Source: Takakia lepidozioides
Lineage: Eukaryota; Plantae; Bryophyta
Length of the DNA: 64,000 nucleotides
NCBI GenBank assembly: GCA_030704615.1
Contig: CM060733.1
Coordinates: 19,716,001-19,780,000, forward strand
Direction: 5' to 3'
Both the position numbers and the translations under genes were made by a program. Below, one piece after another: positions 6,777-59,411 of this stretch (the stretch's first letter is position 1; every line of letters begins with the position of its first letter). The notes beneath the pieces were generated by a model, which did no database searches, was not told where the DNA came from, and saw only the letters and a list, made by a program, of their open reading frames with translations.

Positions 6777-8528
6777 GTGAAGATGAGGGAGGAATGGAGC
6801 CCTTGGTATACGGTAATCCCGAACACTGTCAGTGCCACTGGTAGTGTTGAATGCAACCTATGTGGATTAAAGCTTTCTTATCGTAAGGATCGGTTGCTCG
6901 CTCACCTCGGCTATAAAGGTGTGAAGAGCGCTGGGGTGGGTTTATGCCCCAAAGCATCTATCCGGGTAAAAAGCCATTTTGCCCAGTGTGGAGATAATAT
7001 TCCAATATCTTTGAATCTGGACATGACCTCTGAGCAGAACACTCCATCTTCCCGTCAAGATGCCCCGATTAGTACCCAGGGCGACTCTTGTGAGGCTTCG
7101 GGTGTCCTTGGACAAGTGGGTTGTGCCGTAGCAACACCTGCTTCAACACCTCTTTGTACCCTACACTTCAACGGAGTAGAGGATTACGGCAGTAATCCAT
7201 GCAAGAAGGTCTTAACTTGTCTGCGAAAAGACAGTTGGATAAAAAATGGGCGCAGTTTTTCTTCGAGGCCAACATACCATTTAATGTGGCAAGGCTTCTG
7301 ACATTTGTTTCTGCCGTTAGAGCAACCTCGGAATCCAGATCCACGTACGTGCCTCCGACTTATCACAATCTCCGCACAGGATTGCTAGAAGACGCAATGA
7401 CCGAGCTTACCCAAAAGGTCAACGATAGGACGGGCGAGTGCATCAGAAAATATGGAAGCACTATATGTGCCGATGGTTGGAGTTCTGTCACAAACAGACC
7501 GTTGTTTAATGTCATGCTCGTATGTCCAGCTGGGGAACAATTCTTGGGATCGGTCGACACTAACGGCGAGAAGAAAGATGGACGTTATCAATACCAACTA
7601 TTGACGGACTTCATCGAACAGGTCGGAAGTGATAGAATCGTGCAAATATGCACAGACAATGCCGCTAACATGAGAAACACTGCAGACATGTTGTTGGCAT
7701 GTTATCCCCATATGTACTGTCAAGGTTGTGCTGCTCATATCCTTGACCTCATTTTGGAAGATTGGAAAAAAGAACAGTGGGTGAAACAACTTGTCAAGCG
7801 AGCAAAGACTGTTGTGTCGTTCATCCGCACACATCACATCCCTTTGGCAATATATAGGAGGCACGAACCCAAATACAGCCTCCGCAATCCAGGCGAAACT
7901 CGTTTTGCCACTAATTTCTTGATGGTGGATCGGTTGGTGACGGTGAAGAGCAGTCTGGAGCACACCATCATCGATCCTCAATGGGATGCGTACACACGGA
8001 CATACCGGGACTCCAGAAAAGCCAAGGCATTGGGCAAAAGTCGAAAAGTTCGAAATAGCATTCGCAGCGATGATTTTTGGAAGAAATGTGAAAACTTTGT
8101 TTATATGGTAGAGCCGGTGTTAATCGTCTTGCGGTAGTTTGATGGAAAGGAATCAGTAATGGGCAAGGCATGGTTACTAATGCAAAATCTTGAGAAGTAC
8201 GTCCAATCCTTGAGGCATCCTCCCTTCTCCTTGGAACCTGAACTTGCGGACAGTGCTGAGGATACATTTTACGACCGTCGTTCGATGGTTCGAACGGAAT
8301 TGCATTATGGGAGGGCTTTACTCAATCCATTCTTGCTCGACAATACCATGCTCCGAAACGACGCTGATGCCAAGGCCGGCCTCGTGCGAGTGCTCATGCG
8401 ATTGGCTCCGCCGAACCATGTAGAGAGAGCTATATCCGAGTACCAATGCTTCTCAGATCGTCGCGACCCTTTTGAGGACATGTCGGATCCAAAAGAGCTC
8501 AATATGTTGCAACATGAATGGTGGGATC
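6777..8528 (+). pseudogene. hAT transposase, N-terminal and catalytic part (BED-like zinc finger, DUF659 / RNase H-like DDE core), with frameshift and stop
   Basis: CNLC...LLAHL...CPK; FFEANIPFNVA; TICADGWS; IVQICTDNAANM; CAAHILDL; PGETRFATNF. Homology stops abruptly after QHEWWD. Confidence 0.93.
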
Positions 8529-10005
8529 AAAAGACGCTGCTGCTCTACAACAATCCAGAAAGGCAGTTGAGATGACACAAAAGACGGTGGATGCAGCTGT
8601 GCAGGCTCAACAAAAGGGGTTGAAGAAGAGGACTCGCAAGGAACAGCAGTTGTGACACCCAAGAAGACAAAGAAACAGAAACAAAAATAGCAGGAAGAGG
8701 GTGACGAAGAGGACTCCGATGGAAACTTTGCAACCAGCCCACCCCCCAAAACGTAGCCGAAATCCCCTGTGCCCACCGTTGTCACAAAAGGACGAGAACA
8801 TGCTTAGCAAAGAAGACACTCTTCAACCCCCGGTGGGACACCCTTTTCGAGCCGGTGGAAATGAAGAGGCCGAAAGTGGAGCCAGAAACAGTAGTTCATT
8901 GTGTCAACGAGAGTTTCTTGGCGGCTTTGGATGGACGGGCAGCCAAGTTGGCATACATCAAGACCATGGAGGGTCTCAAGGGCAGAGCACTAAGGAAGGC
9001 GGATGCCGAAGAGCCTTCCGACACCTTTGGGTTTCTGAAGACGGTCTTATTCTTTGAGAAGGTGTGTGCAGGGAAGGATTGCAGGAGGGGCGGAAAAGCC
9101 ACCAAGTGGTCTTGCGATATGATCATCTTGGATATTCCGGACATAGAGCCTGTGGAAGGACTGCAAGCTTTGCCATCTTGGAACAAGTACTCCGAGGACT
9201 TTTGGAAGAAATGATTCGGGCTCGCCCGCATGGTGTTGGCAAAAAACACGGGGGCAGGAATTGCAAAGTGGACCCGCAAGAGCGCCGTCCCAATTCTGAA
9301 GAAGAAGTGGACATGCATCAACACATTGGGCCTTCGGTCGGAAGGGAAGAAGGTAATTACGACATTGGCAATCATCCTTTCATTTTGTAAGCTATTTTGA
9401 AATGCGGTGCTGCATTTGATTTCTAATCGTTCCCCACTGTGTATGCAGACGAAGCAGTTTGATGCATACTGCTTTGTGAAGGAGAACTCGACCTTTGCTT
9501 TCCGGAAGGATGGATTGTTGGTTGACCCGAACTGCGACCCCATCGATTACGACGTCATGTTCAACAACGTTCCCACGGAACTCCTCCCTCATAGCCTCAC
9601 TTCAACGGATCCCCTGCGGTATTCACAGACTCGGAGCAGACAATTATGGAGGCATGCACTGACCTAGAGGGCAAAGTGCTGGACCTCATCTGTGGAACAG
9701 GTATGTAGATTCTTGTACTATGTTGTTCTGCAAATTCGCATTATGTTCAAATTCGTCATATCTGAAGGGTCATGTTTTAATGAGTGGATGTCATTCTAAC
9801 AGGTGCCTCAATGTGGGCTGGGCGGTTTTCCGACCGGCCCCTCTTTGCCTACGAGGAAGACACATCCGTCTGGGGATCCCATCTGGAAGGGCGTCAACGG
9901 AATGTGAAGGCTCTCATCGAAGCCAAAGATTCCTCGGATGATTCGTCGGACTCGGAGGAAGAGACAATGGACATTGATGCCGAGGAGAACCCGGAATACG
10001 AGTAA
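8529..10005 (+). pseudogene. C-terminal part of a TE-associated gene encoding a beta-class amino (N6A/N4C) DNA methyltransferase-like domain; 2 introns, degenerate
   Basis: Motif IV-like CDMIILDIPD (~9113-9142) precedes motif I-like EGKVLDLICGTG (~9667-9700), followed by ASMWAGRFSDRPLFAYEED. GT-AG introns at 9353-9448 and 9701-9802 splice in frame. Stop at 9212-9214 and a frameshift near 9665. Confidence 0.72.
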
Positions 10006-10399
10006 CTGCAAACATTGTAAGTTTGCAAAGCCTTCTGGGTGATTTTTTGTCACACGCATTTCCAGACCGTGGTTCTCATTGGTCTCGTGGGTGATTGTTA
10101 TGTGCAGGATTCCAAGATCCGAGTCGAAACCAGTGGCGCCTACATTTCTTGCCAGGGAGAATGTCTCGTTCTTTGCGAGGACCGTCTTCATGAAGAGGCC
10201 GCATTTCTGATTTGGGAAGGACGTGGTTTGAAAGATGGTGTAGTTTAGAAGCACATGGGAGAGGGGATATCAACAGCGGGGAGAATTTCCTTTATATACT
10301 CTGGAAGAGATTGTAAATGTACAGAGAGTTAATTAAAATTCTACAAATCTTGAAAATCATCATCACTATCGTCATCCTGTCCTTGACTGTCCTACTCCC

Positions 10400-10980
10400 C
10401 TTCCACCCCCTCATTGCCTTTCTCATGTCCAGTAGACAGCTCGTTGGCCAGGCTTTCAAAAATCCCATCTTCCCTTTGTGGAACTGACCATCTCACCTCC
10501 GTTGGGTCGTTCTCCTCCCTGTCTGCATCGCTCTCTTCCGCTAAATCACATATATACTTTCACACCCGTCTACCTGTCTCAGCTGCTGCCAACTCTTTCC
10601 TTATCCTTCTGTCCTCCCTATTTCCAACATTAACAGCGTTTCAGGTCCTTGATCATTTTTGTCAGGCCTATGGCTTTAGAGTCAATTCGAATAAGTCCAT
10701 GGGATTGTTGTCCAGACTCAAAGATCCTTCTGCAGCGGCTCGCTGTCCCCCCTATACCATCGGACTCTCTTGGTTACCTGACGGGAGCTCTCATAAGCTC
10801 CTTGGTCATCAAATAGGTCATGATATCTCCCTCAGCCAAGGATTCTCCTCTGTCATCTCTAACATGAAAAAAAGCTTTTCTACTGGAGCTCCGCTAGGCT
10901 GTCTCTAACGGGTAGAGCCCGCATCAGCAACCCAGTCCTTTTAGCCTCCATATGATTTCTCATTTCTGTCTGCTCCCCTG
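10400..10980 (+). mobile_element. LINE (non-LTR retrotransposon) RT C-terminal fragment
   Basis: LDHFCQAYGFRVNSNKS...KLLGHQIG, then after a frameshift WSSARLSLTGRARISNPVLLASI*F. This is typical of the plant L1 RT thumb region. Confidence 0.7.
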
Positions 10981-11926
10981 GTTCAAGCTCATGACTCCTG
11001 AGGGGTGCTAGTGCTCAAGTGTAGCTCTTGGGTCTTATTGAAAAATGCTCCTGTAGGATTTCCATAAAATCAGCTCTCCGTCTGCCCACTGGACAGGCTC
11101 ACGGAAAGTGTGGCGGCTGCGATTCAGGATCTAGAACGCCTAACCCCCCATGTTTCTTCTTCTGACAGATCTGTTCCCCCGAAACTAGGGCTTTTCTATT
11201 CTATTGGGCAAGGACTCAGTGGCTCCCCAAAGGAAGTTACCAAAGGTGTGATTACTGAGACACTGGGAAGCTAGCAAGTTCCTCATGTTTTGGCAGTCAA
11301 AGCAATGACTAAAGAACAATTGTGGCAGGAAGTCTTCTCAAATCCTTTACAGTTGTGGGACAACAGGTTTGATAAGGTGACTCCGTCTCCATCTAGGACA
11401 TGAAATAGTTGGTCAAGGAGTGCTTTTGACTGGGGCTGGCATGATGAGTTCTGTATGCTGGATTATGCTCCAGTTGCATAGATTGATGCAATTGTCACAA
11501 CAGCCCTTTCTTATCTAATGTAGGTTGTTCAAGCCTATTCTCTGTTCTTTGATTTACGCGCGGTGCTTGGTTGTTATAGATTGGTCTGTGCCAGCCTTTG
11601 TTGAAGCTACTGCTGATCAGCTGCCAACTGCTGGTTTTCACAGAAAAGTCCAAGGTTACCAGACTTCAGAGATAAGGGCAGTAGTAATGTCCTTGGGATT
11701 GAGGGTTGGTCAAACCCTCCCTGGGGCAAAGCAGAGCCATCTGCGATGCTACAAGGTTCAGCACAATTTGAAGGTTCTAATGTCGATATGCAGCATGGAT
11801 TTCCAGGACAAAAATACAGCGGGTATTCTTTTGATGACCAATGAAACAAATAGAATTGCGTAAGTGTACTCTCATAGTAGATGACTGCAGTGGTTTTGTA
11901 GCTATCGATCTGTAGCAATAAGATCC

Positions 11927-14900
11927 ATGTCCAAGAGACTGAGGTATATAATTTCAAATTTAGTGCAAAAGTTGGTCACTAAGAATTTTGCGTCCTGCAG
12001 GATGGCAGGATTAAATCAGTCACAGCGGTTTGAATCAAGCACCGTTATCACCGCTGGTTTTGAAAGAGGATCAGGAGAGGGGGTCACCAATAACTCTTTT
12101 GGCATGGGTGGGGATTTGAGGGCACTATGTAAGGCTGGACAGCTGAAAGAGGCACTGCACATTGTGAACCAACAAGGCAATTCACCAGGCTCTGACACAT
12201 ACCTCTGGCTCTTGCAGGAGTGCATTAAAATTAAAGACTTAGCAGCAGGAAAGCAGGTGCACGCCCACATTATCCAATGTGGATTCAAGCCAAACATCTA
12301 TCTGCTCAAGACCCTCGTCAACATGTATGCCAAGTGCGGCAGCATGGTGGATGCACGGCAAGTGTTTGACAGTATGCGTCGACGAGATATGTTTACATGG
12401 ACTATCATGATGGCAGGATATGCGAAGCATGGGCATCCAGAGGAGGCTTTCCAAATCTATGAGCAAATGCAGTGGGAAGGGGTGATGCCTGATAAAGTCA
12501 CATTCACTTGTGTTCTGAATGTCTGTGCCAGACTAGGAGTTCTGGAAAAGGGCAAGGAGGTCCATGCTGACATCATGCAAGCTGGAATTGTGGCAGATAT
12601 CATTTTGGAGAATACCTTTGTGGACATGTATGCCAAATGTGGGAGCATGAAGGATGCTCGTCAAGTGTTCAACCACATGGCCGAAAGGGATGTGATCTCT
12701 TGGAACACCATGATCACAGGATATGCTCAGCATGGGTGTGGTAGGGAGGCTTTTGAAATGTATGAACAAATGATACGGAAAGGGCTGCCACCTGACAAGG
12801 TAACATTCATTGGCATTCTCAATGCGTGCACCAGCCTTGGAGACCTGCAAAAGGGTAAAGAGGTCCATGCAGACCTCAGCAAAGGTGGTCTTATGCCAGA
12901 TATTATTCTGGAGACAGCCCTTACTGACATGTATGCCAAATGTGGAAGCATTCAAGATGCTCGGCAGGTATTCAACCACATGGCCAGACGAAATGTGGTC
13001 TCTTGGAATGCCATGATCGCAGGATATGCTCAGCATGGAGGCAGCATTGAGGCTTTGGAGATGTATGAGCAAATGAGATGGGAAGGGGTGAAATGCGACA
13101 AAGTCACATTCATTTGTGTTCTCAATGCATGTGCCAATTTAGCAGCCCTTGCAAAAGGTAAAGAGGTCCATGCTGACATCATCGAAGCTGGAATTGCACC
13201 AGATATCATTCTGGAAACTGCCCTTGCTGACATGTATGCCAAATGCGGGAGCATAAATGATGCACGCCATGTATTTGACAGTATGGCTAAACAAAGTGTG
13301 GTCTCATGGAATGCCATGATTACAGGCTATGCTCAGAATGAGTGTGGTAGGGAGGCTTTTGAAATGTATGAACAAATGAGACAGGATGGGCTGACTCCTA
13401 ACAGGGTGACATTTATCTGCATTCTCAATGCTTGTGCCAGCCTGGGAGCAGTGGACATGGGCGAAAAGGTCCATGCTGACATAATCACAAGTGGAATTGT
13501 GCCAGATATCATTCTCGAGAATACACTTGTTGACATGTATGCCAAATGTGGTTACTTATCAGGTGCACGTCAAATTTTTGACAATATGGGTAAACGTGAC
13601 ATTGTCACATGGAATGCAATGATCACAGGATATGTTCAACATGGGTGTGGTGTAGAGGCTTTCAAGTTGTATGATCAAATGATACAGAAAGGGGTGCTGG
13701 CCGACAGGGTCACATTTATTTGCATTCTCAATGCTTGTGCCAACCACGGAGCCCTGGAAAAGGGCAAAGAGGTCCATGCTCAGATCATCAAAGCTGGAAT
13801 TGGATCATACATACAGTTGGAGAATACTCTTGTCGACATGTATGGCAAATGCGGGAGCATAAAAGATGCACGTCAAGTGTTCGACAACATGGCTGAACGG
13901 AATGTGGTCTCATGGAGTGCGATGATCGCAGGTTACACTGAGCTTGGACGTGGTACAGAGGCTTTGGAGATGTATGAACAAATGATACGGGAAGAGGTGG
14001 CACCCAGTAAGGTCACCTTCATCTGTGTTTTAAATGCATGTGCCAGCCTGGCAGCCCTGGAAAAGGGAAAAAAGGTCCATGCTGATATCATCAAAACAGG
14101 AATAACATCATATATTAATCTGGAGAATACCCTTCTTAACATGTATGCCAAATGTGGCAGTCTACAAGATGCACGTGAAGTGTTTGACAGAATGGTGGAA
14201 CGAGATGTGGTCTCATGGAATTCGATGATCACAGGATACGGACAGCATGGGTACAGTAGGGAGGCTGTGCACCTGTTTCAACAAATGCACCAGGGAGGCT
14301 TGAAGCCAGACGGTATTACCTTTATATCTCTTCTCTGTGCTTGTAGTCATGCGGGCCTAGTGGATGAAGGTTGTCACTACTTCGATTCCATGATTCAAGA
14401 TCATGGCCTCACTCCTAAAGTGGAGCACTTTGGCTGCATGGTGGACCTTCTTGGCCGTGGAGGAAAACTGAAGGAGGCAGAGGATTTAATCAGTAAAATG
14501 CGCATTGAACCAGATGCTTCGGTGTGGGGGGCCTTGCTAGGTGCCTGCAGAATTCATGGCAATGTGGAGCTGGCAGAACGTGCAGCAACATGCCTTCTTA
14601 AGCGCGATCCACAACACGCTGCAACTTACGTCCTGCTATCAAATGTCTATGCTGCAGCTGGCAGGTGGGATGATACAGCAAAGGTTAGAAAAATGATGCA
14701 GGATAGTGGTGTGAGAAAGGAGCCAGGGTGTAGCTGCATTGAGGTGGCCAACCGGGTACATACATTTGTTGTAGGAGACAAATTGCACCCACAAATTGAC
14801 GAAATCCATGCGGAGCTCAAGAGATTGGCTTGGGAGATGAAGGAGGCTGGATACATGCCTGACACACGATTTGTTTTGCATGATGTGGATGAGGAGCACA

Positions 14901-15130
14901 AGGAGATTTCTCTTTACCACCACAGTGAGAAGCTGGCCATTGCTTTTGGGCTCATTAGCACACCCACTGGGATGCCCATCTGCATCATCAAGAACCTTCG
15001 GGTATGTGGTGATTGTCATACCGCAACCAAGTTCATCTCAAAGATTGTTGGACGAGCAATTATTGTACGGGATGCTAATCGCTTTCACCACTTCCAAGGT
15101 GGGTTTTGCTCTTGTGGGGACTACTGGTAG
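11927..15130 (+). CDS. PLS-class pentatricopeptide repeat protein with E and DYW deaminase domains (organellar C-to-U RNA editing factor)
   Basis: 1067-aa uninterrupted ORF with seven 101-aa (303-bp) PLS triplets, PG box KEPGCSCIEV, HSEKLA and CGDCH zinc ligands, and terminal CSCGDYW. The true start may be ATG 12002, after the acceptor CTGCAG at 12000. Confidence 0.97.
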   Translation: MSKRLRYIISNLVQKLVTKNFASCRMAGLNQSQRFESSTVITAGFERGSGEGVTNNSFGMGGDLRALCKAGQLKEALHIVNQQGNSPGSDTYLWLLQECIKIKDLAAGKQVHAHIIQCGFKPNIYLLKTLVNMYAKCGSMVDARQVFDSMRRRDMFTWTIMMAGYAKHGHPEEAFQIYEQMQWEGVMPDKVTFTCVLNVCARLGVLEKGKEVHADIMQAGIVADIILENTFVDMYAKCGSMKDARQVFNHMAERDVISWNTMITGYAQHGCGREAFEMYEQMIRKGLPPDKVTFIGILNACTSLGDLQKGKEVHADLSKGGLMPDIILETALTDMYAKCGSIQDARQVFNHMARRNVVSWNAMIAGYAQHGGSIEALEMYEQMRWEGVKCDKVTFICVLNACANLAALAKGKEVHADIIEAGIAPDIILETALADMYAKCGSINDARHVFDSMAKQSVVSWNAMITGYAQNECGREAFEMYEQMRQDGLTPNRVTFICILNACASLGAVDMGEKVHADIITSGIVPDIILENTLVDMYAKCGYLSGARQIFDNMGKRDIVTWNAMITGYVQHGCGVEAFKLYDQMIQKGVLADRVTFICILNACANHGALEKGKEVHAQIIKAGIGSYIQLENTLVDMYGKCGSIKDARQVFDNMAERNVVSWSAMIAGYTELGRGTEALEMYEQMIREEVAPSKVTFICVLNACASLAALEKGKKVHADIIKTGITSYINLENTLLNMYAKCGSLQDAREVFDRMVERDVVSWNSMITGYGQHGYSREAVHLFQQMHQGGLKPDGITFISLLCACSHAGLVDEGCHYFDSMIQDHGLTPKVEHFGCMVDLLGRGGKLKEAEDLISKMRIEPDASVWGALLGACRIHGNVELAERAATCLLKRDPQHAATYVLLSNVYAAAGRWDDTAKVRKMMQDSGVRKEPGCSCIEVANRVHTFVVGDKLHPQIDEIHAELKRLAWEMKEAGYMPDTRFVLHDVDEEHKEISLYHHSEKLAIAFGLISTPTGMPICIIKNLRVCGDCHTATKFISKIVGRAIIVRDANRFHHFQGGFCSCGDYW

Positions 15131-18098
15131 AACAAGCAACGTGCAAGAGAACATGTGGGCAGACAAACAGTAAACTCCATATCAGAGGAGTTGCCAAGAG
15201 GGAGTGCTTGGCATGAAATTGTTACAGGATACAAAGGTTGCCAAGAAATTGCTCAACTACGGCATCCTTAAAACATTGTCTCGGGAACTTGCAAAATGTG
15301 TATTCTTCTGACTCGCTTGTGAAGCTCCAACTCCAGCTCAAGCTCAAGCTCTTGTGAACACCCAGTCTTCTTGAAGAGCTGGAGATTCATTCCTTGGATT
15401 TTAATTGTGGTGAGGTCCAAACTTTCCACTCATAATTCAATTGAAGAATAGTATTTGCTTATGTTTGACTGATTCACACTTGTAGTTCTGTGTATGTGTC
15501 TAATAGTGCCTTCCATTTTGGTTATGTGTTCTGGTGAGATAAACCCCCGTTTGTTTGGTGTGGGATTTTAGGCGGATGATATCAGGAATTTGGTTCACAA
15601 CGATGCTTGTGAGACTTTCAAGCGGTGTGAAGATGTGGATGCTAACCCAGACGAGCTTGCATCCTAGGTCATGCTAGATCATGCAAGATCACACTACAAT
15701 GGAGAAGATCTGAAATTTGCCATTGCCATTCAAACTTCATCCACCTTCGGAACAAGGTTTGTTCAACTGAGGACATGTAGTTTCATGTTCTTCACATTTT
15801 CAACTCTGAACCTCAACTGTGAACTTTCAGGGGTCTGAAAGTTGAAAGTTGTAAGTTGAACACAACCTAGTAGATGTATATCTACATATATCCTGAAGTG
15901 CGAGTCAAAACTCCAGTGGAGGCTTGATACTAATGTGCAAATGATTCTTCAAACTTGGGTGTAGGGAGCAGAGACTAATAGAACTATCTAGTAATTGGTT
16001 CCCTCCAAAATTTCCGTCATGTAACTCGAGCTCAACTAGAGCTCTTTATGTTTTATCAAATAAAATAAATGACGAGAGCCACCAAGGTAGGGGTTTAACA
16101 CCCTCAACCTATTCTCAGACTTTCAATAGGTGAGCCATCAGGGTTGCTTGGTTGAACCCTGGGACAGAATGAGCTGCTATTTTTGGTAAGCAAAACTGAC
16201 GATGTGGGATCAGGTTTCAATGCCAAACTGCACTCTCACCAAGATCCCACAGAGGGTGTTGGTTAAATAAGGCAGCAGGGCGGTGGTCATGGAAGCTGAG
16301 ACTTGCAGACCTCTATCCCATCCACATGATTGGAGTCAGCAAAGAGAGGTGGGATATGACCCCATCATATATTGGATTCTCACTCCGTTCCATTTGTCCA
16401 ACATAATAAGTCAATTTTCAAGACCCATCAAAAGCTTGCACGATTGACTCGAGCCCTTCTCATACACTATTTCCTATTCTGTGGTGCATTTCTAACTGGT
16501 GCCAGGAACATGAATGTTCGGCAAGGAACTCCGTACTAATAGTGTCAAGCAATTGGTATGTAACATAAAACTTCCCATACACCAGTTGTAAAAGTCATCC
16601 AATTCAGCCACAATTTATTACTGCTCTGATGATGTCCGCTGCATCGTCAGTCATCCTTCCATTCACAACATCAGTAACCAGTTGTACCACGCCAAAATCA
16701 AGACATCCGACCTACAAAAACCAGTCCTATACAACATCAACTCACCCTCAGCAAAGCTATATTTGAAGCTCTGGGTTGCTATTCACAGTATCTGTGAATC
16801 AAGCTCATTGCCAAAAAGCTGCAGGGTCGTACTAGATATACACACTCAGCACTAAGACATCCTTCACTGTGTCAGAAATCTGCAGACATGAGATTGGGCA
16901 CTGCTTCCAACGGATGCTACCTTTAAAAGGTCATTGCAAATACAAAACATTTGACTAACAATGACACGGACGGAAAAAGGACATAGCCCCAGCTGTGGGA
17001 ACAGAGTGCAGTGCATCAAGTGCAAAACCATCCTCTGCACTGCACACCCGACCTCTGAACCTCTCTCTCTCTCCTGCTCTCTCACACACACATGGTCCCT
17101 GCACCTCTGCTCACCAAATTTCAAGATCTCGAGGCTGAGCCTAAGGCGTTGGCCCTTAATTGCTGGGCAGCTCACACACAGCAGATTGATGCTTGTGTGA
17201 AAAGGTTTCTGAAGGAAATACGGACAGCCCTTACTGCCTCCCCTAGACATAATACAATCTCTCCTCTCTTCTCTACCCATGTATGTTAATCTCTCCATCC
17301 CTCCAACCCTCTCCAGGAGCTAAGTAGTCATGGTCCAGTGGTGCAAATCGAACTCAGAGTACTACTTATACCCCAAATTAACTTGTAACTGAAGCCCATG
17401 CTCGTCCTCGCAGTGGCTTCCGGGCATTTCCGGATCATATCCATATTTTAGGTGATACACCTGGGATACCTTGTTCCCATGCCCATCCAACCCTAGTGGT
17501 GCACATGACTGCAAGAGATTACACTTAAAGCTAAAACAAATTCCGGGCATCCAAAACTAGCAGTGGTGGGGTTGTGAGATACTTACCTTGAATGAACAAG
17601 GTCATAACAAAATAATCGTAAACATAATATTTGAAGTGACAAACAGGAAACTTCCACTCCCTTAAACTTTTTGTCACCAACCAACATGATACGACACCCA
17701 GCAACAAGAACCACCCTGAGATAGAGTTTTACAGCATTACAGCACCAATGATGAGGATTCACCTTTCCATACTACCTTTCCAGTGCCTGGTGAGCTGACA
17801 CCGCATTTTCCAGCAGCCAGTGGAATTATTACAGTTGCATCTTGCTGAAGTGGCACCAAATCCCTCCGGTGGGCATGTTTCAAGTAATGACAAACAGAAC
17901 ATCTTCATGTGACCAAGGCAAATGCAAAAGGGAACTCTGGACCTCTCGCCATGAAAGATGCAAATCCTCCATACAACCAAGACAAACAGACAAACCTCCA
18001 ATGCTAAAGCCATGTAAACAGATGCTCACTTTAACTTCTGTAGCCAACAGGAGCTCCTTGGGCTGGTGGCCCAAATGAATTCAGCGTAGTCTGCCCTC

Positions 18099-21545: not shown

Positions 21546-21593
<48 letters not shown>

Positions 21594-40276: not shown

Positions 40277-41390
40277 TGACGAACCTCACTTGGGACGTGA
40301 GAAGGTTATCTCCACGTGAGACGTAGGCAGGCTCGTCTTCTTGTAGTCGAGCCTCCGGGGGCCTCTCTCTCGTCGCCATAGCTCTAGTACTTGAGATGGA
40401 GAGTGGGTGAGGTCTGTATGGTGGAGTCCTTTAGCAAAGGTCATATAACGTGATAAAGCGGTTTCTCCTCTTTTCACCATTTCCGTATCACTAGAAGAAG
40501 ACCTGCTTACATCTATGAGTGCAAGGTGTTAGCATAGTTAGCATTTGTATGTGGAAGAGAGCTTGATAGATAGCTCTTAAGTTACAAGATATTGCAGGGT
40601 TTGCAAAAAGAAAACCTTGTGGTATTTATGTACAAGAGGAGGTCTTCAAAGAGAGCCCCATTGAAAAGTTTGAGAGCTTGTGAAGAAGCTCTTGTTCTAC
40701 AAATGTTGTAGGGTTTGAGGAGTTCAAGAAGAGCTCGGGTATTAAGGAAGTAAACGGTGCATGTGTGCAGCATGGTTTCAGCTTGTGGGAGTCTTCAACT
40801 TCAAGCTTAGGAGAGCTATGAGTGGAGGTAGACATCCGATTTCTCTTTGGGTCAAAATAGGGTATTTGTAGAGCATGCTTTGAGTTAGGGTTTCAATCCC
40901 AAGCTTGGGAAGAACATGTCTATGAAAGTGGCAAGTGCAGGGCTGGATTAGGAGCTCCAAGAGGTGCATTATGACCATACAAGGAAGCACTATGAGTGCA
41001 TGCGATGGCTAGAAGAGGGTATGTCATAGAAAGCTCAATAGCTTGTTCTATGCTTGTTTCAATAAGTTCCATAAAGAAAGAGAGCTTGTTGTGTGGCAAA
41101 TAGCTTGCTCAGGGAGTTAGAGGCACTTTTGGTGGTCTATTGATGCTCAAGAAACCAAGAATAGCACCTCTGGTTGCTCCATAGAAGCCATAGCTCATTG
41201 CAGGCAAAGCGGCGCAAACCCTAGCTTGGGAACGCGTGTGAACTCCTTGGGAACTCAAGGGAACGCGTGATAACGCTTGGGAACTCGTAGGAACGCATGG
41301 GACCACGTGGGAAGGATTTGTGCATACATTTGTCCACTTTGTAACCACGGCTTAGAACACTTAGGCATAAGTAGGTGATCCTACCAATAC
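40277..41390 (-). mobile_element. Probable solo or partial LTR of a retrotransposon
   Basis: Begins TGACGAACCTCACTTGG and ends ...ATACA. A TATA-like CTCTACAAATACCC lies on the minus strand near 40870, with internal GGAAC(T/G)C repeats. No TSD was found. A related start, TGTCGCGCACCTCACTTCGG, occurs at 41412. Confidence 0.5.
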
Positions 41391-42311
41391 ATTTTGAACG
41401 AGACTATAGAATGTCGCGCACCTCACTTCGGTAGACTCCCCTTCAAGTCATTACTCGCTTTGATGCGCGCGCATAACTCCCAAACTGGCCGCCGGACCAA
41501 CTCGGAGCTTCGGCTGGAGGTTTACTATTTCATGAGCAGAAACCATGAGCCATGAGCCGCATGAGCTGCATGAGCGCCGAGCCGAAGTCTAAGACACACG
41601 GTTTCCATGAGCGGACTCCTCCAAATTTGGAAATGCTGCAGATTAAAAAAGTATAAAAATAATAGTTTTTTAATTCGACCTTGCCGTTTTTGGAAGTTCC
41701 AGATCCTGTACTGCGGCGAAGATATGTCGTCAGTAACAATTCCGCTCATGGTTTTTTAGATCCGCTCATGGAAATGAGTGACCGTGCAACGAGAAATCCA
41801 GTATACCACATCAAAAGGACGTCGCAAACTGACAAATAGAGTATTCTGCGGTTTTACATGCCTTAACATTGGAATGAAGCTGACCCTTCTGCCGCGATTG
41901 AACCAATAGAGTCTGCACCAATAGAGTTCACAATTCTGTCATCTTCGGGTATTTGGCGGGAAAAGTTTGCGACTCAACTAGGAAATGCGGTGCCGCATTA
42001 GGGTTCGCACGTGCGAAATTTCTGGGGGGTTCGGTGTCGGCGACGGTCAGCTCCATGAAGACTAGATGCGACTATCTTGCTATGACGAAGGCCGCAACTA
42101 CCAGTACCTACGACGTTACTTGGAAATGCGACGCCGCATTTCCTTGCCGGGGGTCGAATGAGGAAAGCAAAGTTTAGGAGAGCAGAAAAAACAGGAACCC
42201 CCCAACAAACAAAAATACAAGCACATGGAAACAGAAGTGAATGATATAGTATTATCTTAGTTCAAGCAAAACACGTTACTCGACATAAGTCGAACCTTTC
42301 TGTGGTCAAAG

Positions 42312-43330
42312 TCAGAGGTACTTGCAGCAGTACAGTTCTACTATAACTGAAACTCCGAAAAGGATGGGCGTAACATTGTGTTGTGGCCCGCAAGCCAAGC
42401 TCACTGGTCCCCTGTATCCATATTCAGAAGAATGTACACCTCTTGGGGGACTCGACCCTAGTGCATGTATGAAGTGATGAGTTGTGGAATTACACCGGAG
42501 TCTCTTTAGGTACACATAGTACAGATGCTTGCAAGGGCAGTATGATGCCCCCTTGTTTGCCATGATTTAGAAGTCGGTGCAATTGCAGGTGGGTAATTTT
42601 GAAATGGTGATGGTGTACACCTCATTGCGAACAGCTGAGCCTGTTGTGGCCATCTGATACACACGCCCGAAGCCTGGTGGGGGCACTTCTGTTGAGCTCT
42701 GGATTGTACAGTTCATCCGAAGTGCATTCCCCATCCTTGTCTCGTTCACTTTTGAGGGAGGTCGCCGCCTCTTCGGTTTCCCCTAACGGTGTGTAGGATG
42801 CTTAGAGTTGTCGCGTCCCATTGTTCTTACACTCATAGGGGTCGGTGGTGGAGGCTGTGGAAGCGGAAATGGTTGTTTGGGGACGTCAGTGCGTTGCACC
42901 ATCCGAAATCCTGCGGCAGTAAGGGCGTCGGCCTCAACCTGACTTAGATCACATCCTGGTTCCACCGGCCATACCGGGGGAGCCTCTGGCATTGGTTGTA
43001 TGCTGTACTTGGGCTTTCCACACACGCAAGTCATAATATCGTGCTTGCAGAACCAGAACTGGGTAGTTGTCACCTCCGCAAACTTTGCATGGACAAATCT
43101 TCCTGTAAAAGTAGGAGCAGGGACAACCCCATCAGGATTCCTCCTTATCATCTCTAAACAACTTTGCCGTGTATCCACTCGAATTGCGGAACACTTGCCT
43201 CAAAACACCAGCCTTGTGCGAGCAATTCTCCACTGTGACGCAGACATCCTCATAGAAATGTGGTGGGTAACTACTTGTTTCCCCCTCAATTGGTGTTGCT
43301 GATACTGCACCACAGTAGATACCTTCATAG
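42312..43330 (-). pseudogene. SWIM zinc-finger protein gene, 5'-truncated by the gypsy insertion
   Basis: VYTITISKLPTCNCTDF*...YCPCKHLYYVY matches the SWIM CxC-xn-CxH pattern. Upstream Cys-rich segments include FWFCKHDIMTCV. In-frame stops are present. Confidence 0.75.
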
Positions 43331-43334
43331 CAAC

Positions 43335-46300
43335 TCAAGCCTCCCAGTTGCAATTCTGCAACTTGCTCCCACTCTGGGTGTGCAGCAAACAGTGTAGCTT
43401 CATGCTCCTCATCAAGTCCTCCCCTCCAGTCACACTCTCTGACTCCACGAGGTCTTCTGTAGCAGGTAGTCTACTAGATTTCTTAGTGGTGACCTTTATC
43501 TTGTGCTTCCCATCATGCACAGTCGGTAACTGGGAATTCCAGTCATGGAATACCCTGGCCTATTTCAGCCATGGTCGACCCAGCAATAAGGAGTAAGCTT
43601 CCATGACATCATCCATTTTCAACACAGTCACTGTGATCTTAAAGATCATCTTCTGAATTTGAATCTTAACTCCTCTTATCAAGCCTAATGGCTCTACACT
43701 CATTTGATCTACCATTGTTACTGTGAATGGGGCTGGTTTCATGTTACTTAGACCAAGCTTCTGCCTTAATTGGTCTGTCATAATATTCACTCCTGAGCCT
43801 CCATCTATCAGTACATCAGTCAAGTTTGTGCTTCCAATTCTCAATTGGATTATGGCATAGAATCATCAAAGTCCATAACTGTTTCTCGCCCTTCAGGCTT
43901 CACATTATAACTTGTCACCTTGATGTTCAGGTCTGCGTTTGCTGTCACATGAGCAATCTGATTGATTGATTGATACAGCCTGTGTCTACAATGAGGTGCT
44001 ACAACCAATAGCTGTCCAATGGTAATCTCAGCTTTGGACTGGCATATTACTTCAGCCAAAGTCCCTTCATTACCCTGCACCAATACAGCTTCTTGCTTCA
44101 CTTCATCTTCACCCTCTTCATCTTCCCCATCAGAGTCAGAAGAGTTTGCCATAGGGCTATCAGTGTCATTGTGCATTTTCCTTATGGTATCAACCACTTC
44201 CTTGTGCAGTTCCTTCTCATCTCTCCAAGCCTCATCATCTTCAGGCACATCATTGCCATCTTCATTAACATCTTCTTCCTCATCCACTGGAGGTATTAGT
44301 TTAGCTTTGCTTCTGATAACTATCATTGTACTTACTTCCGGAACAAAATATGGCCTAACCATGTGAGCTGCCACTACTGGGCCCTCATTCACAGGAGCTC
44401 TCATCTCATTTTGGTGTCTGATCCAGAATGGACAGGCTGCTTTGCGATGAAATGAAACTGTGTTTCATGCTTTCATACATTTTGCCTTAATTGTTGTAAA
44501 CTCCCATACACTTCATCCTCAGTTTTGCTTGTCCTGAACCTATTCCAGAATGTTGTACTAAGGCCATTCCAGGTTTTGAAATGATTATTAGGAAATTTTA
44601 CATACCATTGACTTGCTTTCTTGATAAGTGAACAGGGAAATAGTCTCATCTTGGCATCATTGCCATTCTCATTGTTCACAATACACATATGCTCAAATTG
44701 GCTGATGTGTACATCAGGATCCCCTTTTCCTGCATATATTGGGAAAGGTGGTTTTGCCCGTGTTGGAGGTACCGCCATCTGTGGCCCTACACCCTGCCCT
44801 CTGACAAGTGTTGGTCCTCATGTTGATGCTGGTCCTTGAGGACCTACTGTTGTAATGGTGGAACTCCCACCAGGTATTGGCCCCTGAGCACTCCCTGCCA
44901 CTGGCCCCTCTGTACTTACAATATTCCTAGCTATAGTTGCACTACTTTCCACACTCCCTGTCCCCCCAGAGCCAGATCCAAGCTGCCCGCCTGATCCCCC
45001 TGAGCCTACACTTTTTGTTGCCCTGTGATCCAAGTGTTCCACTTGATCCAGGTCCAACAGGTTGGGATGTCCTGGTTGTAGTCTCAACCTCAACTATTGG
45101 GTCTACCTCTTCATACCCTTCATCTTCTAGTTCTTCTCTCTGTTTTCATATTCCAAGCTCTTCTCTTGGATTTCCTCTTCCTCACTCATATAACTCCACT
45201 GCAGTGGTGTTGGAGAGTCTGAACTCTCCGTTGGCTCTGCCACATTATCCTCTCTTTCTTTGTCTTGTGCTTCAGAAACTGGAGTTCCTGCTTTTGGTGT
45301 CCCATACCAACTCTGATCAAAGATTTTGTCAAATTTTTAATCCAAGGATGTACCTCAGATCTTTCCCCTTGTGGTTGATCTTTTTCCTCTACCAAATCCC
45401 TTAATCTTTCTTGTAAAGAATAAGGAGTGGCATCCAACTCTGGTTCTTCCGGTATGGGTGATGTTTCTGATCTTAATGGTGTGAGAGGTCCAGATGATTC
45501 TCCTATGTCTATTCCTCTCTCCCAAAGATATGGATAATTAGCTTTCAAATAACTTTCCCTTTTCGCTGAATATCTGTGGAGTCTAGCTTCTCTTTCATCA
45601 CTCATGTCCCATGTCTTTCATATCTTTAATGAGGCAATAACCAAAACTCTCTTCTGTAGTATCTCTCGTATATGCCTAGATTTATTTCAAGCTTCAATGC
45701 ACCCTTGGCCATACTAGAAGTCTCCGTTACCATATAACCATATGGCAAACACATCTGAAAAGTTGTTCTTGGTGTAAGTTAGATCCACAATATATCCTTA
45801 GGAATCCAATTCTTTACCAGTACAAGTTCTTCATGCATATGAGTGTAAACATTCACTTTCCGTTCCTCCCAGCTTTCAAACTCTATTCGCTTAATGGATA
45901 ACAATGCTATCACATGAACCAGTGTTGGTAACCAACTTGCTCTCCCTCTACAGGCCACTTGATAGATCTTTATCACTCATTTCTCCAGACCCCACTCTGG
46001 ATCAGCATCAAACACTCTCTTAAGAATGTTTTCCTTGCAACCGTCTGGCAATTCCAAGAACCTCTGAAAGAATGTTTGGACAATCTTTTTTTCTCGGTTC
46101 CATAGGGAATTTGATTCATATCAAATTCTTTAATTCTCCAACCACCATGATCCCACCAGATGCCTGTCACATCTGGTTGTTCTTGACCCAGTTCCCCAGT
46201 ATGGTGGCCAAATGTCAAGCGGCTTTTACTCATCCATCCCTTCGCTATCCGAGGTGGGAACTCCAAGATAGAAGAGTTGGATATCTCTAAGCACTCAGCC

Positions 46301-47330
46301 CGCTCAGAACAATCAGTCATGACCTACAACTAGTGTATCATGGAAGTGCTTCTTGTTTGTATTCTTTCTTGCCTTCATGTCAGCGAATTACCTTACTGTT
46401 TATATTTAAGCATCAGATTGCTTCAGCAATCTACCATGTTCCAATTGTTCATCCAGTCATTCCACAACTTCACTCAGGTCTCTCTACACAGTGTGAGTAT
46501 GGAACGTGTATCATATTAAGATCTATCAAGTATCAGGCCGAAGCCATGATGTCTCTAATCTGCTCTACAGTACATCTCTACAGCTTGCATTCATCAAGCA
46601 TCAACAGATCGGGTCTCCTCCATCACAGTGCTCTCCATCTCCCTGTTCAAGATCGTCCTTCTCTCCCTGATGACCAAGTCGTGATGCCCAAGAAGTGTCC
46701 TTCCCGAAGTGATCTAAGAAGTAGTGTCCCTCCATGTTGCTACTCTGCCTAATCTATCTGCAAGCTGTTCTAACCGCCTAACTAATTAACTGTCATCCAA
46801 GAAAAAAATACGTTCCCTCTGCAGATGTCGTTCCCACACAGTCGTTCCCTGCCAATGATAACCGTTCCCTATGTATGCTGTGACGGGCTGTGCCAAGCTG
46901 TATCGGGTTGTGACTGTGCCGAGCTGTGACTGGCTGTGTCAAGCTGTGACTAGCTGTGTCGGTTGTGACTGACAGCGTCAGGTTGTGTCGGGCTGTATCG
47001 TGCTGTGATAAACTGTGATAGGCTGTGTCGGGCTGTGTCGTGCTGTGATAGACTGTGATAGGCTGTGACAAGCTGTGTACGACTGTGTCAAGCTGTCAGG
47101 CTGTGTTAGGCTGTGATAAACTGTGTAAGGTCATAACTGACTGTGTGAGCCTGTCTACCACCCCTAAGGTCTGTGTCTGTCACCCCTAAGGCCTCTGTTG
47201 GTCTAAGTCTACCATCCGTAAGTCTGCACAAAAATTAAGGGTACCCCACAGAACCCGTAAAAGTGTCTAAGTCCTAGACAGCCCTCTAACAAGCATTTTC
47301 AGTGACCCTGCAAGGCACACTCTCCAGTTT
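43335..47330 (-). mobile_element. Truncated Ty3/Gypsy retrotransposon: gag and aspartic protease, with a 5' region containing (GCTGTG) repeats
   Basis: Retrotrans_gag: PFPIYAGKGDPDVHISQF...MRLFPCSLIKKASQWY. Protease: VLIDGGSGVNIM...YSLLLGRPWLK. GCTGTGA/GCTGTGT short repeats at 46877-47140. Confidence 0.85.
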
Positions 47331-47399
47331 AGTCCACTGAAGCACGAAAACAAAACTGATTGGAAACCGAAATGCGGCACCGCATTTCAGATGTGCTTG

Positions 47400-48800
47400 G
47401 GAGGGTAGGAGAATCTTTCGGGTTGAGGTCCGCCATGACATTCTTGAGCAGGGAGGGGTCTTTCACCTTCACCTTGAGGATGACACACTCCACCATGTAA
47501 TGCCAGCCAATATGCTTGGCATGGTTCTGCTTGATGTACTCCCACCAGGCAAGAAGTCGGTGGTTCCCATCCCACACAAAAAACATTTTGTCCGACATAT
47601 GGCCGAAGTCTGGATCACCCTTCAGCATTGTCTCAAATTCATCATTGTAAATGTGTCAGTGGGTATCCCATGCTAACAATTCATCCGCAGTGGGTCCTCG
47701 AGTTTTGCCGTCTTCATTCCCAATGGAAACATAGAAGGCTGTCGAACCTAGACGATACCCTTCTTGAAATGCAAACTTGAGCTTATCGACATCTCCTGGA
47801 AGAGCCTGCCTGAGAATGGGAAGGGAGACCATGCGACAGAGTGGAATTCAAAGAGTCCGCTGGAATATCTTGCTGCCCAGAACTATGCCAATGCTATTTG
47901 TTGTCTCCTCCAACATTGTATCCGCTGCTCTTTGGAATTCCTCTGGAGACATTTTTGCAGGTGGCGGTAGGGGCTGAGCAGCTGGAGCATCCCCAACTGC
48001 AGCTGTACTCTGGGAATCTTTGCGGGCAATTCTTGCATTGTAGAGGCCTCCTCCGGGCCTGCAGTATTCTGAAGTTCTTCCTCAACGGTGGTGAAGTTCT
48101 ACTGCGAACGTTGAGCAGCAACACCTTCCTCCGCTGATAGATCGATAAAATCGGTCGATCTCGTTGCCTTTGCTGCAGCAGAGATGCCCCCAACATCACC
48201 TGCCTGGAAATCAAGCAGGAACTGGGCTTCAGCTCGTGGAATCGGTTTTGCGGGAGACTGCTCCGCCCTCCCCCTGATTGTCTTCTGCTTCTTGATTCTT
48301 GCAGGTGAAGGTGTCTACTGCATTTGAATGTGCACTGCACCCTTCTGCTTCACTCTCTTGGGGGGGGGGGGGGAACGGCTTGGTCCGGTTCATAAACCAG
48401 TTCAAGGACGGGCTGCTTCTTCTTCGTCTTTGCTGGAGAAGGGCCCGACCCCTGTTGACGATTCTCCATGACCTTCAAACGTGAGTCTTTCTCTGGGGTT
48501 TTGAACTGCAAAGACTTGTCTTTCCAAGCCGCGTCCTTGAAACACACAGGGCTAGGCCCAACATGAAGACCCGTGCTCATGGATCGGCTGGGTGTGCATG
48601 CTGCAGCTAGCTCCATGGATTCTTCCTACGGCTCTTCGGATTCCTGCAATCCCTCCACCACCTCCACCTTTCGAATTAGGCATGCAAACATCTTCTGCAT
48701 TCAAGGGTCCTATCATACAGTCTAAGAATTGCACAACAAAAATGAGGGAGGGTTTCGGTGCTCGATCAACTGTGCGCATCCTGATAGCACGGAGCTCTCA
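47400..48800 (-). pseudogene. ParB/Sulfiredoxin-like domain gene, degenerate
   Basis: EGYRLGSTAFYVS...KMFFVWDGNHRLLAW matches the hhhhDGxHR motif of the ParB/Srx fold. The upstream region is charged and low-complexity, with stops and frameshifts. Confidence 0.6.
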
Positions 48801-49222
48801 CTAGGTTGTCTGTGTTGCCTGCTGTTGCGAGATGACCATCTCGTCCTGAAGACGCATCTGCTTCCTCCCCTTCGGCATTGGGCCTACGTCCAAAGTACAA
48901 CTTGCGGAGCTTGCGACGATGTCTCTTCTCTGGTGCACGAACTTCCTCCCTCTCAGGTTGGAGCATAAGAAGAACACAGACACGGAAAATGGGCGAAGAG
49001 TGCAGATGGAAAGGGCGCGAGAGGGGTGACTGAGTAGACACGACAAATGAAAATGAAACGGCGGTGATGCACCACTTGAGTTCGAAAGGCTGGGATGGAA
49101 GTATCTCCTTGTGGACTATGCGTCGTTACAAAATTCGAATCGTCAAAGGTACGCCTGCCGTCCGCCAAACAAACATCATTAACCAACGGTCAGGCCGCGC
49201 AGCCAGCATGAGTGCAAACATC

Positions 49223-49845
49223 AAAATGCGGAGCCGCATTTCCGTTGGTCCACGTGTTCACATATCATAGCATTTGCGTCCCAACGTCTCATGAGTTAGA
49301 GTGAAAACGGAAATGTGGCGCCGCATTTCCGTTAAGGCAACTTTGAGTTACATCCCGAACGGAAATGTGGTTTCATGCCTAACATGCAAAACGGAAATGC
49401 GGCGCCGCATTTCCGTTCTGGAAAGTCGGAAGGTACGACTCGGACGGAAATGCGATGCCGCATTTCAGTTGCAGTGTTTTATGATTTACAATCAGAAAGG
49501 ATATGCGGCACCGCATTTCCATTCCACTGTTACATACCTTACTTGTTGGACGGAAATGCGGCACCGCATTTCCGTTCTGGAGAGTATAAAGGTTTCCCAT
49601 GGATGGAAATGTGGTGCCGCATTTCTGTCTTACTGCTACATGCCTGAGATGCAAAACGGAAATGCGGCGCTGCATTTCAGTTCTTGAAAGTCAGAAGGTA
49701 CGACTCGGACGGAAATGCGGTGCCACATTTCAATTGCAGTGTTTCATGATTTACAATCAGAAAGCATATGCGGCACCGCATTTCCGTTCCACTATTACAT
49801 ACCTTACTTGTTGGACGGAAATGCGGCACCACATTTCCGTTTTCG
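49223..49845. repeat. Array of 22-bp palindromes GGAAATGCGGCACCGCATTTCC at exact 53-bp period (265-bp higher-order unit)
   Basis: Copies start at 49393, 49446, 49499, 49552, 49605, 49658, 49711, 49764 and 49817, with extra copies at ~49223 and 49309. Confidence 0.95.
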
Positions 49846-49869
49846 ACATAATCATCCATTTCCGTACAT

Positions 49870-50045
49870 AAATCCATTTATATCATCCATATTTGGCGAA
49901 TTCATCCCTAATTTATTTTTCATTTGGAGAAATTTGGCGATTTCATCCATGAAAAAACAGGGAATTTGTGACATAACCTTCATTTTATTTTTATTTTTTC
50001 TGAGGTCGAAATTTGGCGAAAAATCGCCAGCAAAAAAAACGCTAC
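49870..50045. mobile_element. Probable MITE fragment
   Basis: AT-rich, with repeated AATTTGGCGA and an end of GAAATTTGGCGAAAAATCGCCAGCAAAAAAAACGCT. Unrelated to its flanks. Confidence 0.45.
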
Positions 50046-50134
50046 CCTGTAGTGGATGCGTGGCTCAACCGCATGACTTGGTGGTTCCAGGTAATTCAAG
50101 GTACTTCCCCCAATTTGTTTTGCTGGAATGAATT

Positions 50135-50790
50135 TCATGAATTGCTACGTGACAATGCATGTTGAAAACGCAGGTAATGACAAATGCGAAGGAGCAAGTC
50201 ATAATGCATACAAATTCGTTTGGCTTGTATGTGAAATGGGATGGAACACAGACATTGGAAGACTACGTAACACGTTTCAGATGTGCGTACAATGACAACC
50301 TCTTTGCCAGGGAGCTGCAGACAACAAGAAGGAGCGTGGAGTTTACACATCAGGAGGGGGCGGGAAAAGCTGCAATGCGAATTGTATACAGGTGAAGCCC
50401 AGCTCCCGTTGTATGCAAAAGCTGGGTTATGAGGTTTGCCTGGGAAATGCGGCACCGCATTCGTACTTTACGTTTTCAGTTGCACTCTGCGAATACATTG
50501 GTCATAACTTGTACTCACGCATGCTGACTTTCTTGCAGGTATATAAAATATGTGCTTCTCAAGACAGGGGCCCCGACTCAAGAACCCCCGTTCTTCATGG
50601 CTTGGACCGTGGCGGGCCCAAGTTGTGTCTACACACCAGAGACGCAGAAACAATGACATGCCGCGCATCTCATTGGATGCCCGTGGTACCTGGACATGTC
50701 TAGTGGATTTGTTGACGAATCAGAGAAAGATCTACACACGAAAGCAGAGGAGAAGAGAAAGGAAAGATGTATCCCTGCTAGGCCTGAGTC
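50135..50790 (+). pseudogene. Upstream exons of an unknown TE gene, inferred to be the N-terminal part of the methyltransferase gene continuing at 8529
   Basis: Exon ...AAMRIVY, a GT-AG intron at ~50392-50538 that contains the element's palindrome, then exon RYIKYVLLK...KERCIPARPES with one TGA. The frame continues as KDAAALQQSRKAVEMTQK at 8529. Confidence 0.6.
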
Positions 50791-52042
50791 GAGCTGGAGC
50801 AAGAACATTGGCTCCCATTGCGAAGCGTATTCTTGCTCGAGTGTGCTCTGCCTCATCTTGCGAACGCAATTGGAGCAGTTACTCATTTATTCACAACAAG
50901 ATTCGCAACAGGTTGAATCCCGCGAGGGTTGACAAATTGGTGTATGTGTATATCAATTGCCGACTGCTACGTGAGAGGACAGCAGATGATGCTGCAGCAT
51001 GGTATAAGAAGAATTTGCATTCCGAAGACTCTGCTTTTGAGGCTGATTCGATGAGTGACGATACTGAGCCTCAAAGAGAATCATTTCAGAGAGAGAATCA
51101 TTTGCCTCCGATAGTGAAGATGAATCCGATGATGCTCCCGAAAATACGTATGACCCGTTTACATTCACAAAGGATAATGCTTATATCCAGCCGACCTTTG
51201 ATAACCTTCTTGAAGAAATGCGTATCGCAGATGAAGATGAAACTGCAATTGTGTCATCCCCAGAACATGGTCCTCAAAATGAAGTTGGGGTCGACCTTCG
51301 TTCCCCACTACACGCTGAAGCCACCGGTAGTGCCCCAATGGAGCTTAGGGGTGATGTATTGCCAGGACCGATCGATGTACGCAACCCTGTTCATACAAAC
51401 GATGGTGTCGAACCCATTGTACAGTCGAAGGGACGGGATCATGCCTCACCAATACGACCAGCTCCACCACAATACCAAAACCGATCCAGCTCCCCATCAA
51501 CACAACGGGCATTAAGGAGCAACAGGGTTGATCTGTTTTTCACACGCATGCATCATTCTGCTGCATTGGACCAGGTGGAAGTTGAAGCCTCGGATGAGGA
51601 CAACCTGCCACTACAATTTCACCTTAACCGACGTGTTGCGCAGCAGACCCGTGGTTCCTCACATGTCGAACCATCTAATGTCGGTCTTTCTCGGGCAGTC
51701 CCCCCTCCGATACCTCTTTCGAAACCACCTTCGATTGCGTCCCAAGTCCATAAACGACAGAGAATAGTCCAACCTTTTGTAGGCGATCGGCCCACAAACA
51801 GGTCAGATACCGTGGATGATATTCAAGACCGGAGTGGGAGTCGACCTCAGAGAGAACTAAATGTGGTTCGAGATCGTTTGCAGATTCAAAGGCCTGGATA
51901 TATGAGGTCGGATAGGGAGAACGATTCCAGCACTGATCATGGCAACGGTGGTAAAGTCGAGGGTGACCCGGATTTTCAACCCATCGGAGCATTAGGATTA
52001 GGATCTTCTTCGTCTCGCCGTCGAAGCAATAGAAGGAATTGA
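50791..52042 (+). pseudogene. hAT transposase C-terminal dimerisation domain plus long disordered tail
   Basis: AGARTLAPIAKRILARVCSASSCERNWSSYSFIHNKIRNRL...KLVYVYIN is the Dimer_Tnp_hAT signature and the segment missing after HEWWD at 8528. Confidence 0.93.
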
Positions 52043-59215: not shown

Positions 59216-59411
59216 CATTTTTTTAAAAGAGTTAATAAATATTAATAATTGGCCACGTCTGTTTTACACCGTGGCTGCCATGTCATTACAAATGGTAGAA
59301 GTAAATCGTAAAAGTCAAATGTAAAAAAAATTACATGGATAAACATCCGGATTCGACGTGACGTGACGGCCGACGTGTTAGCGCCACGTCACGTCAGGAA
59401 TGATAACTAGG

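Follow-up and report, generated by a model that had tools for sequence, protein, structure and literature searches.

A circularly permuted 42-kb gene block within a hAT transposase gene of Takakia lepidozioides, possibly derived from a DNA circle

The closest described counterparts of the rearrangement analysed here are cattle KIT, a translocation via circular intermediates (Durkin et al. 2012), and Nile tilapia vasa, a duplication by a 28-kb circle (Fujimura et al. 2011), both as presented in the available portions of PMC3420103 and bioRxiv 10.1101/2022.06.22.497135. Compared with two independent insertions, or with template switches of great precision, a circle has been argued to be the more parsimonious account of such events (bioRxiv 10.1101/2022.06.22.497135; PMC7188851), and the former source covers balanced moves too; the accessible passages of the two do not treat a pair of overlapping inversions that moves an unduplicated block. 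Plants possess gene-bearing circles conferring herbicide resistance in Amaranthus (PMC12722694) and chimeric EVD circles in Arabidopsis mutants (PMC10462705). In their accessible text, the former, a 2025 perspective, cites animals for reintegration into the germline, and the latter, a 2023 study, cites yeast, cattle and cancer cells for reintegration; neither cites plants for it. Our literature search, beyond which most subscription papers lay, found no bryophyte case of circle reintegration. Here we describe a 64,000-nucleotide stretch of the Takakia lepidozioides genome (assembly GCA_030704615.1, contig CM060733.1, positions 19,716,001 to 19,780,000, forward strand; hereafter the window, numbered from 1), in which a block of 42,262 bp (8529-50790) splits the transposase gene of a hAT transposon between 8528 and 50791.

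Reciprocal seams in two transposon families

An initial annotation, made from the sequence alone, had placed the ends of the block at 8528/8529 (junction 1) and 50790/50791 (junction 2), each directly after TC, and re-reading the sequence confirmed both the positions and the dinucleotide. It had also proposed that joining the sequences outside the block restores the hAT transposase with about 6 bp lost, and that joining the inner ends, 50790 to 8529, links a set of exons to a part labelled as a methyltransferase gene. We compared both seams with relatives of the elements concerned.

At the outside seam, the five best of 28 hAT relatives all align as two pieces, one on each side of the block. 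In two of them (P0003 and P0004) the alignment ends at 8527 and resumes at 50793 with three residues skipped, and a third (P0001) reads WWD-LLG-AGA at the gap. The spacing from WW to L is 11 in 13 of the 24 hAT proteins with this motif, 9 in two and could not be parsed in nine; the joined halves of the window give 9, and protein spacing alone is not proof. We therefore turned to DNA of the hAT family in Logan contigs from four short-read runs (X1, X2, X3 and X5), which represent at most two samples and of which X1-X3 may be the source of the assembly itself. Contig counts given here are minima drawn from the matches listed, 20 of 62 for the hAT and X side at 50790 and 24 of 1525 for the left side of the block. 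In all four runs there are hAT-family contigs starting at 50784-50793 whose loose 5' ends resemble window positions 8498-8527 (at least two contigs in X1, 4 + 1 in X2, 1 + 2 in X3 and two in X5). Because these contigs cross directly from 8527 to 50791, the outside join is settled where protein spacing could not settle it: the family runs continuously through the seam.

The inside seam belongs to a second, very high-copy transposon family, which we call X, and both ends of the block lie in one X gene. X-family contigs reach 50791 and continue with letters like those from 8529 onward (at least seven contigs in X1, two in X3 and one in X5); the X5 contig has 226 loose letters past 50791. From the other side, contigs starting at 8537 bear loose ends like 50772-50791 (at least one in X5 and two in X2), with 17 of 20 letters matching by eye. 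An X-specific palindromic motif has 16 sites in the window, 15 of them in 41982-50463, one at 9399 and none elsewhere, where 0.01 would be expected. The contigs across the seam and the distribution of this motif together indicate that 50790 and 8529 were once neighbours, and the exons that end at 50790 do continue into the part that had been labelled a methyltransferase. Intact family copies run uninterrupted across both seams, the outcome that the initial annotation had named as confirmation, and the gene block is thus circularly permuted.

Over both parents the net loss is 9 bp, 6 from hAT and 3 from X when the cut is set at 50790/50791. The earlier figure of about 6 bp is therefore right for hAT and too low as a total, as X lost bases as well. 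The cut at junction 2 can be located no more precisely than 50784-50791, an interval in which 6 of the window's 8 letters agree with each parent (by eye). These eight positions read as a short patchwork of both parents and may record templated repair.

The block ends show no target duplication, and both fall in the middle of an exon of the X gene; the block was thus not inserted by a transposon or an integrase. Neither terminal inverted repeats, long terminal repeats (LTRs), Helitron ends nor tyrosine recombinase ends, with the accompanying duplication or conservative crossover, are present at the ends of the block. A Starship-like or other recombinase element was considered and ruled out by the mid-exon ends and the lost bases. 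The chance that two unrelated junctions would be reciprocal to within about 10 bp in both parents is p ~1e-6. The block entered by one clean reciprocal exchange.

Among the matches listed, no contig bridges junction 1 or junction 2, so that the short reads give no independent confirmation of the junctions; Logan contigs lose rare paths through high-copy repeats, and the missing bridge is expected. The window's own allele is missing from the contigs at several sites, which is uninformative because contigs drop rare variants.

We also asked whether the block exists in a second copy. Across 10818-11285, one contig accounts for all of the summed depth in X1 (58) and in X3 (35.6), and these depths are near those of copy-specific joints elsewhere; X2 is higher, at 117-123. 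In X1 and X3 there is no second copy at 85% identity or above in this interval, which covers about 0.5 kb of the 42 kb and in which identical copies would collapse. Contig depth is not copy number, and the depths weakly favour a move over a duplication.

Architecture of the locus

The target is a hAT element nested in a Ty3/Gypsy retrotransposon. The outer Gypsy element (2035-61890, minus strand) has LTRs at 2035-2559 and 61357-61890 that are 82% alike, gag and protease domains at 59877-61119, and RNase H and integrase domains at 3267-4568 (minus strand; Pfam). The hAT element (4836-59411, plus strand; 12.3 kb without the block) carries subterminal repeat arrays and is inserted in the Gypsy reverse transcriptase, the frame of which picks up again beyond it; the identical 8-bp target duplication TTTCGAAT stands at both flanks. 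The 5' part of its transposase (6729-8528, plus strand), with a DUF659 domain and an internal frameshift and stop, terminates at junction 1, and contig 28 of run X5 also stops at 8528. The 3' part (50791-52042, plus strand) holds the dimerisation domain, as identified by Pfam, relatives and family contigs. DUF659, the dimerisation domain and the 8-bp duplication together identify the element as hAT. Because the target duplication is matched and the reverse transcriptase frame is continuous, the sequences left of 8528 and right of 50791 are one hAT insertion and not two recombined copies; recombination between two hAT copies, which we considered, is ruled out by the identity of the duplication on both sides. 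The flanks are otherwise collinear, the target having been opened at one point. The cargo region 3' of the transposase (52040-59411) contains a RING-finger remnant (55351-55656), a kinase-like frame on the minus strand (57567-58304), a 120-bp tandem array (55691-56068) and an internal block of hAT subterminal repeats (52398-53654).

Parts of X lie at both ends of the block. On the left are the decayed 3' part of the X gene (8529-10005, plus strand), which family contigs enter from 50790 and which contains a linker, the palindromic site at 9399 and methyltransferase-like motifs discerned by eye, and the rest of X (10006-10620), which holds the end of a convergent reading frame on the minus strand and breaks off at 10620/10621. 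On the right, the 3' part of what we take from its motifs to be a SWIM-finger gene occupies 41520-43300 (minus strand; left end approximate), its 5' part missing. It is followed by a putatively inverted segment at 43300-49845 (minus strand; limits approximate) and by the middle exons of the X gene (50052-50790, plus strand), which end at junction 2. The segment between them includes a truncated Gypsy element (LTR at about 46217-47319, gag and protease, minus strand; no pol and no second LTR), an exon at 47401-47850 (minus strand) and a palindromic repeat array (49270-49841). The exon, presumably ParB-like judging from its motifs, has six protein relatives at 35-48% identity, one of which is linked in the Atlas to DUF3723 clusters at 0.95 with low recognition and is a lead only.

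The methyltransferase label of the initial annotation stands as motifs visible by eye; Pfam and three protein searches returned no match to it. The protein searches with the X 3' part gave 0 of 409 candidates, none in 1.84 billion representatives and no usable Atlas match, and a pattern search in metagenomes gave 144 matches, none confirmed. Neither the window pieces nor 25 pieces from relatives, all short and decayed, matched a methyltransferase profile in Pfam.

The layout of X could be compared across 63 related metagenome loci. A homolog of the window exon at 50540-50740 is found in 30 of these, and in all 30 (16 distinct groups) it is on the same strand as the ParB-like exon and 1.6-2.3 kb downstream of it, or 4.2 kb in one group. 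The window exon served as the seed of the profile, and individual matches are weak (best E 1e-4); neither strand nor position was used in picking them. The SWIM gene is present in 6 of the 63 loci, always upstream of ParB and on the opposite strand. In 20 loci another conserved motif lies downstream of the shared exon and on that exon's strand, at a distance of 550-614 bp in 15 of them. By eye, the window has a look-alike at about 620 bp across the seam, which a profile of the relatives' motif left unscored, its best value of 2.7 bits falling elsewhere. The arrangement of a ParB-like exon, a methyltransferase-like 3' part and a divergent SWIM gene is the same in distant plant relatives. The ParB-like and methyltransferase-like pieces are not known to Pfam and our literature search found nothing on X, which may be an undescribed transposon group.

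Comparison with these relatives points to a rearrangement within X that is absent from the initial annotation. In the window the ParB-like exon reads from the minus strand, and those exons that relatives have downstream of it read from the plus strand; flipping about 43300-49845 restores the relatives' layout. A 6.5-kb inversion with losses at both ends would explain this, as judged from distant relatives, and would have left the ParB-like exon pointing away from the remainder of its gene. The losses would include the pol and second LTR of the inner Gypsy element, the exons expected between ParB and 50052, and the 5' part of the SWIM gene that relatives retain. Two head-to-head X copies with larger deletions would give a similar picture less economically.

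The X sequence is also cut at 10620/10621, on the far side of which lies a 5'-truncated remnant (10621-11020, plus strand) that we take from motifs in its translation to be a long interspersed nuclear element (LINE) reverse transcriptase. It has no Pfam match, and no second copy is seen in the depth table. Other X copies continue beyond the cut: at least two contigs in X3, and as many in X5, have loose ends behind 10620. One X3 contig, identical to the window, begins at 10591 and crosses 10620/10621 with only 30 letters to the left of the cut. Insertion of the LINE into X at this point is disfavoured, as X does not resume after the remnant.

The block itself carries five intron-bearing host genes together with decayed transposons, and the suggestion of an episome in the initial annotation finds no support in such contents. 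The genes encode a PPR-DYW protein (11885-15130, plus strand; open frame of 1081 amino acids; Pfam), a DEAD-box helicase (21060-23521, plus strand; several exons), a ribosomal protein of the S31/Thx family (27256-27600, minus strand; Pfam), a second PPR protein (28103-30160, plus strand; frameshift near its end, no DYW domain) and a protein kinase (32730-38230, plus strand; several exons) that is presumably MPS1-like. The two PPR genes are about 74% alike. The types of gene present, and the sources in which relatives turn up, point to a land plant without seeds, probably a moss. Exon-like, proline-rich pieces at 17760-18850 (minus strand) and a weak U1 zinc-finger match at 19454-19678 perhaps represent a sixth host gene. 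The region upstream of the S31 gene is duplicated over about 130 bp (25394-25527 and 27731-27848, 90-93% alike). LTR-like pieces at 30170-30535 and 40227-41391, with limits set from the sequence alone, have TG...CA ends and no target duplication and could be scars of ectopic recombination. The intergenic parts of the block have no match in the 63 X-related loci, a comparison from which host genes were left out.

How the block may have arrived

We lean towards the reading that the permuted block arose through a circle that was excised, closed and re-entered the genome within the hAT transposase gene. A piece of host chromosome would have been released by two breaks, one possibly at 10620 in X and the other at 10621 in the LINE remnant, and closed into a circle. 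A break in the X gene of the circle and a break in hAT would then have exchanged ends, through end joining at a few bases common to both and without a transposase or integrase, and the donor copy would have been lost, making the event a move and not a duplication. In a variant that we count under the same reading, the circle would be the stretch between the hAT and X breaks, with the same product. The inversion inside X would be a further event, either older or of the same episode. The junction at 10620/10621 is the best candidate for the closure of the circle and falls inside the range where closure must lie; the two LTR-like pieces, which have no target duplication, are candidates as well. 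Of the single crossover with a circle that the initial annotation had put forward, the permutation and the reciprocal junctions are established by the family copies, whereas the free circle is what we infer from them.

A formal check showed that excision and re-entry of a circle and two overlapping inversions give an identical final order. The two inversions, which we regard as unlikely but as a serious competitor, would take place on one chromosome, between hAT and an oppositely oriented X copy to its right, after which junction 2 would be turned back. They yield exactly the observed order without an internal flip, fit a single-copy block, and would sit at a locus that has another inversion. 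The initial annotation had assumed that overlapping inversions would betray themselves by a flip inside the block. As they do not, the lack of a flip would not favour the circle, and the flip at 43300-49845 appears to be an extra event that neither model needs. What tells against the inversions is that they are two separate events whose second breaks would both have to fall within 42 kb in total of the first pair, and that they call for one more junction, which is not in the window and would have to lie past the 13.2 kb of hAT and Gypsy sequence that is collinear to the right of 50791. We favour the circle for two reasons. Its excision and re-entry would be coupled in one cell, whereas the inversions would have to overlap within 42 kb; and the exchange left much less damage than the other X breaks did, a loss of 9 bp against kilobases, which would fit a separate clean event. 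The same disparity bears on a single multi-break event, in which local shattering with end joining, or template switching, would have captured linear fragments in the hAT break with no circle formed. This we judge rather improbable, as it must join both hAT ends to the two sides of one X break, a pairing that random joining would yield about 1 in 7 times by our estimate. It would account for the clustering of breaks in the donor X copy (an inversion with losses at about 43300 and 49845, a seam 0.9 kb away and the cut at 10620) and for the patchwork at 50784-50791, and the internal inversion and the truncation of X raise the odds of such a repair event.

An assembly error is very improbable, whether it took the form of a misjoin inside the block that brought together the two junctions of a real inversion or translocation, or of junctions that are themselves chimeric. 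It would explain the missing bridges, which the behaviour of Logan contigs in high-copy repeats leads us to expect in any case, and contiguity of the interior was checked only up to 11500; contigs identical to the window cover 10591-11378. Joins that are exactly reciprocal and lose 9 bp are not usually what an assembler produces, which counts against such an error. Several considerations nevertheless weigh against the circle. Two overlapping inversions reach the identical order and take as many steps to do so as the circle. The donor X copy has some six breaks close together, a pattern that also suits multi-break repair without a closed circle. An old deletion of the ordinary sort may account for the cut at 10620/10621. 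Across 10818-11285, the depths in X1 and X3 give no hint that a donor copy was kept, a result that would have excluded inversions. Published circle cases rest on a known donor locus, and here the donor lies outside the data.

The fuller history is a more tentative proposal, possible rather than probable: a 42-kb gene-bearing circle, reshuffled inside by an inversion and two losses, would have left one chromosome and become fixed in the germline at a new site, moving five host genes unduplicated in a seed-free plant.

Comparison with known circle-mediated rearrangements

The rearrangement is of a known kind, one old accident involving no new molecular system, with many private changes in both copies, and its history is more complex than first read. 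A base-resolved, gene-carrying case from a seed-free plant would add a lineage to those in which eccDNA returns to the heritable genome. Such a case would suggest a route by which single-copy genes can relocate in a plant that is likely to be mostly haploid, in which plain deletion would probably be lethal. Two high-copy repeats here act as their own reference, and a search of whole genomes for transposon chimeras in reciprocal pairs could reveal such moves with no outgroup needed.

As far as the accessible parts of the sources cited at the outset describe them, the known cases compare with this locus as follows. Like cattle KIT, the locus has a gene-bearing segment at a new place, circularly permuted and opened away from the point of excision. 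However, the KIT segment is 492 kb long and its donor is known, whereas the block here is 42 kb, its donor lies beyond the data and its permutation is read from two transposon families. Tilapia vasa is similar in size and likewise carries host genes in permuted order at a new site, but it is a duplication with the donor kept; here the stretch examined (about 0.5 kb) looks single-copy, and inversions are possible. The change of order from abcd to cdab is shared with human eccDNA duplications (PMC7188851) and with mammalian synteny patterns (bioRxiv 10.1101/2022.06.22.497135). Those cases need a donor copy or an outgroup genome, whereas this one is base-resolved without either and includes an internal inversion. 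The Amaranthus and Arabidopsis examples establish that plants do have gene-bearing or chimeric circles, although those circles are free. Of the four features of the class of circle translocations typified by KIT and vasa (permuted order, a collinear target opened at one point, an internal closure junction, and a known donor out of reach of two inversions), the locus shows the first two, together with a candidate closure junction, and its membership of that class is likely.

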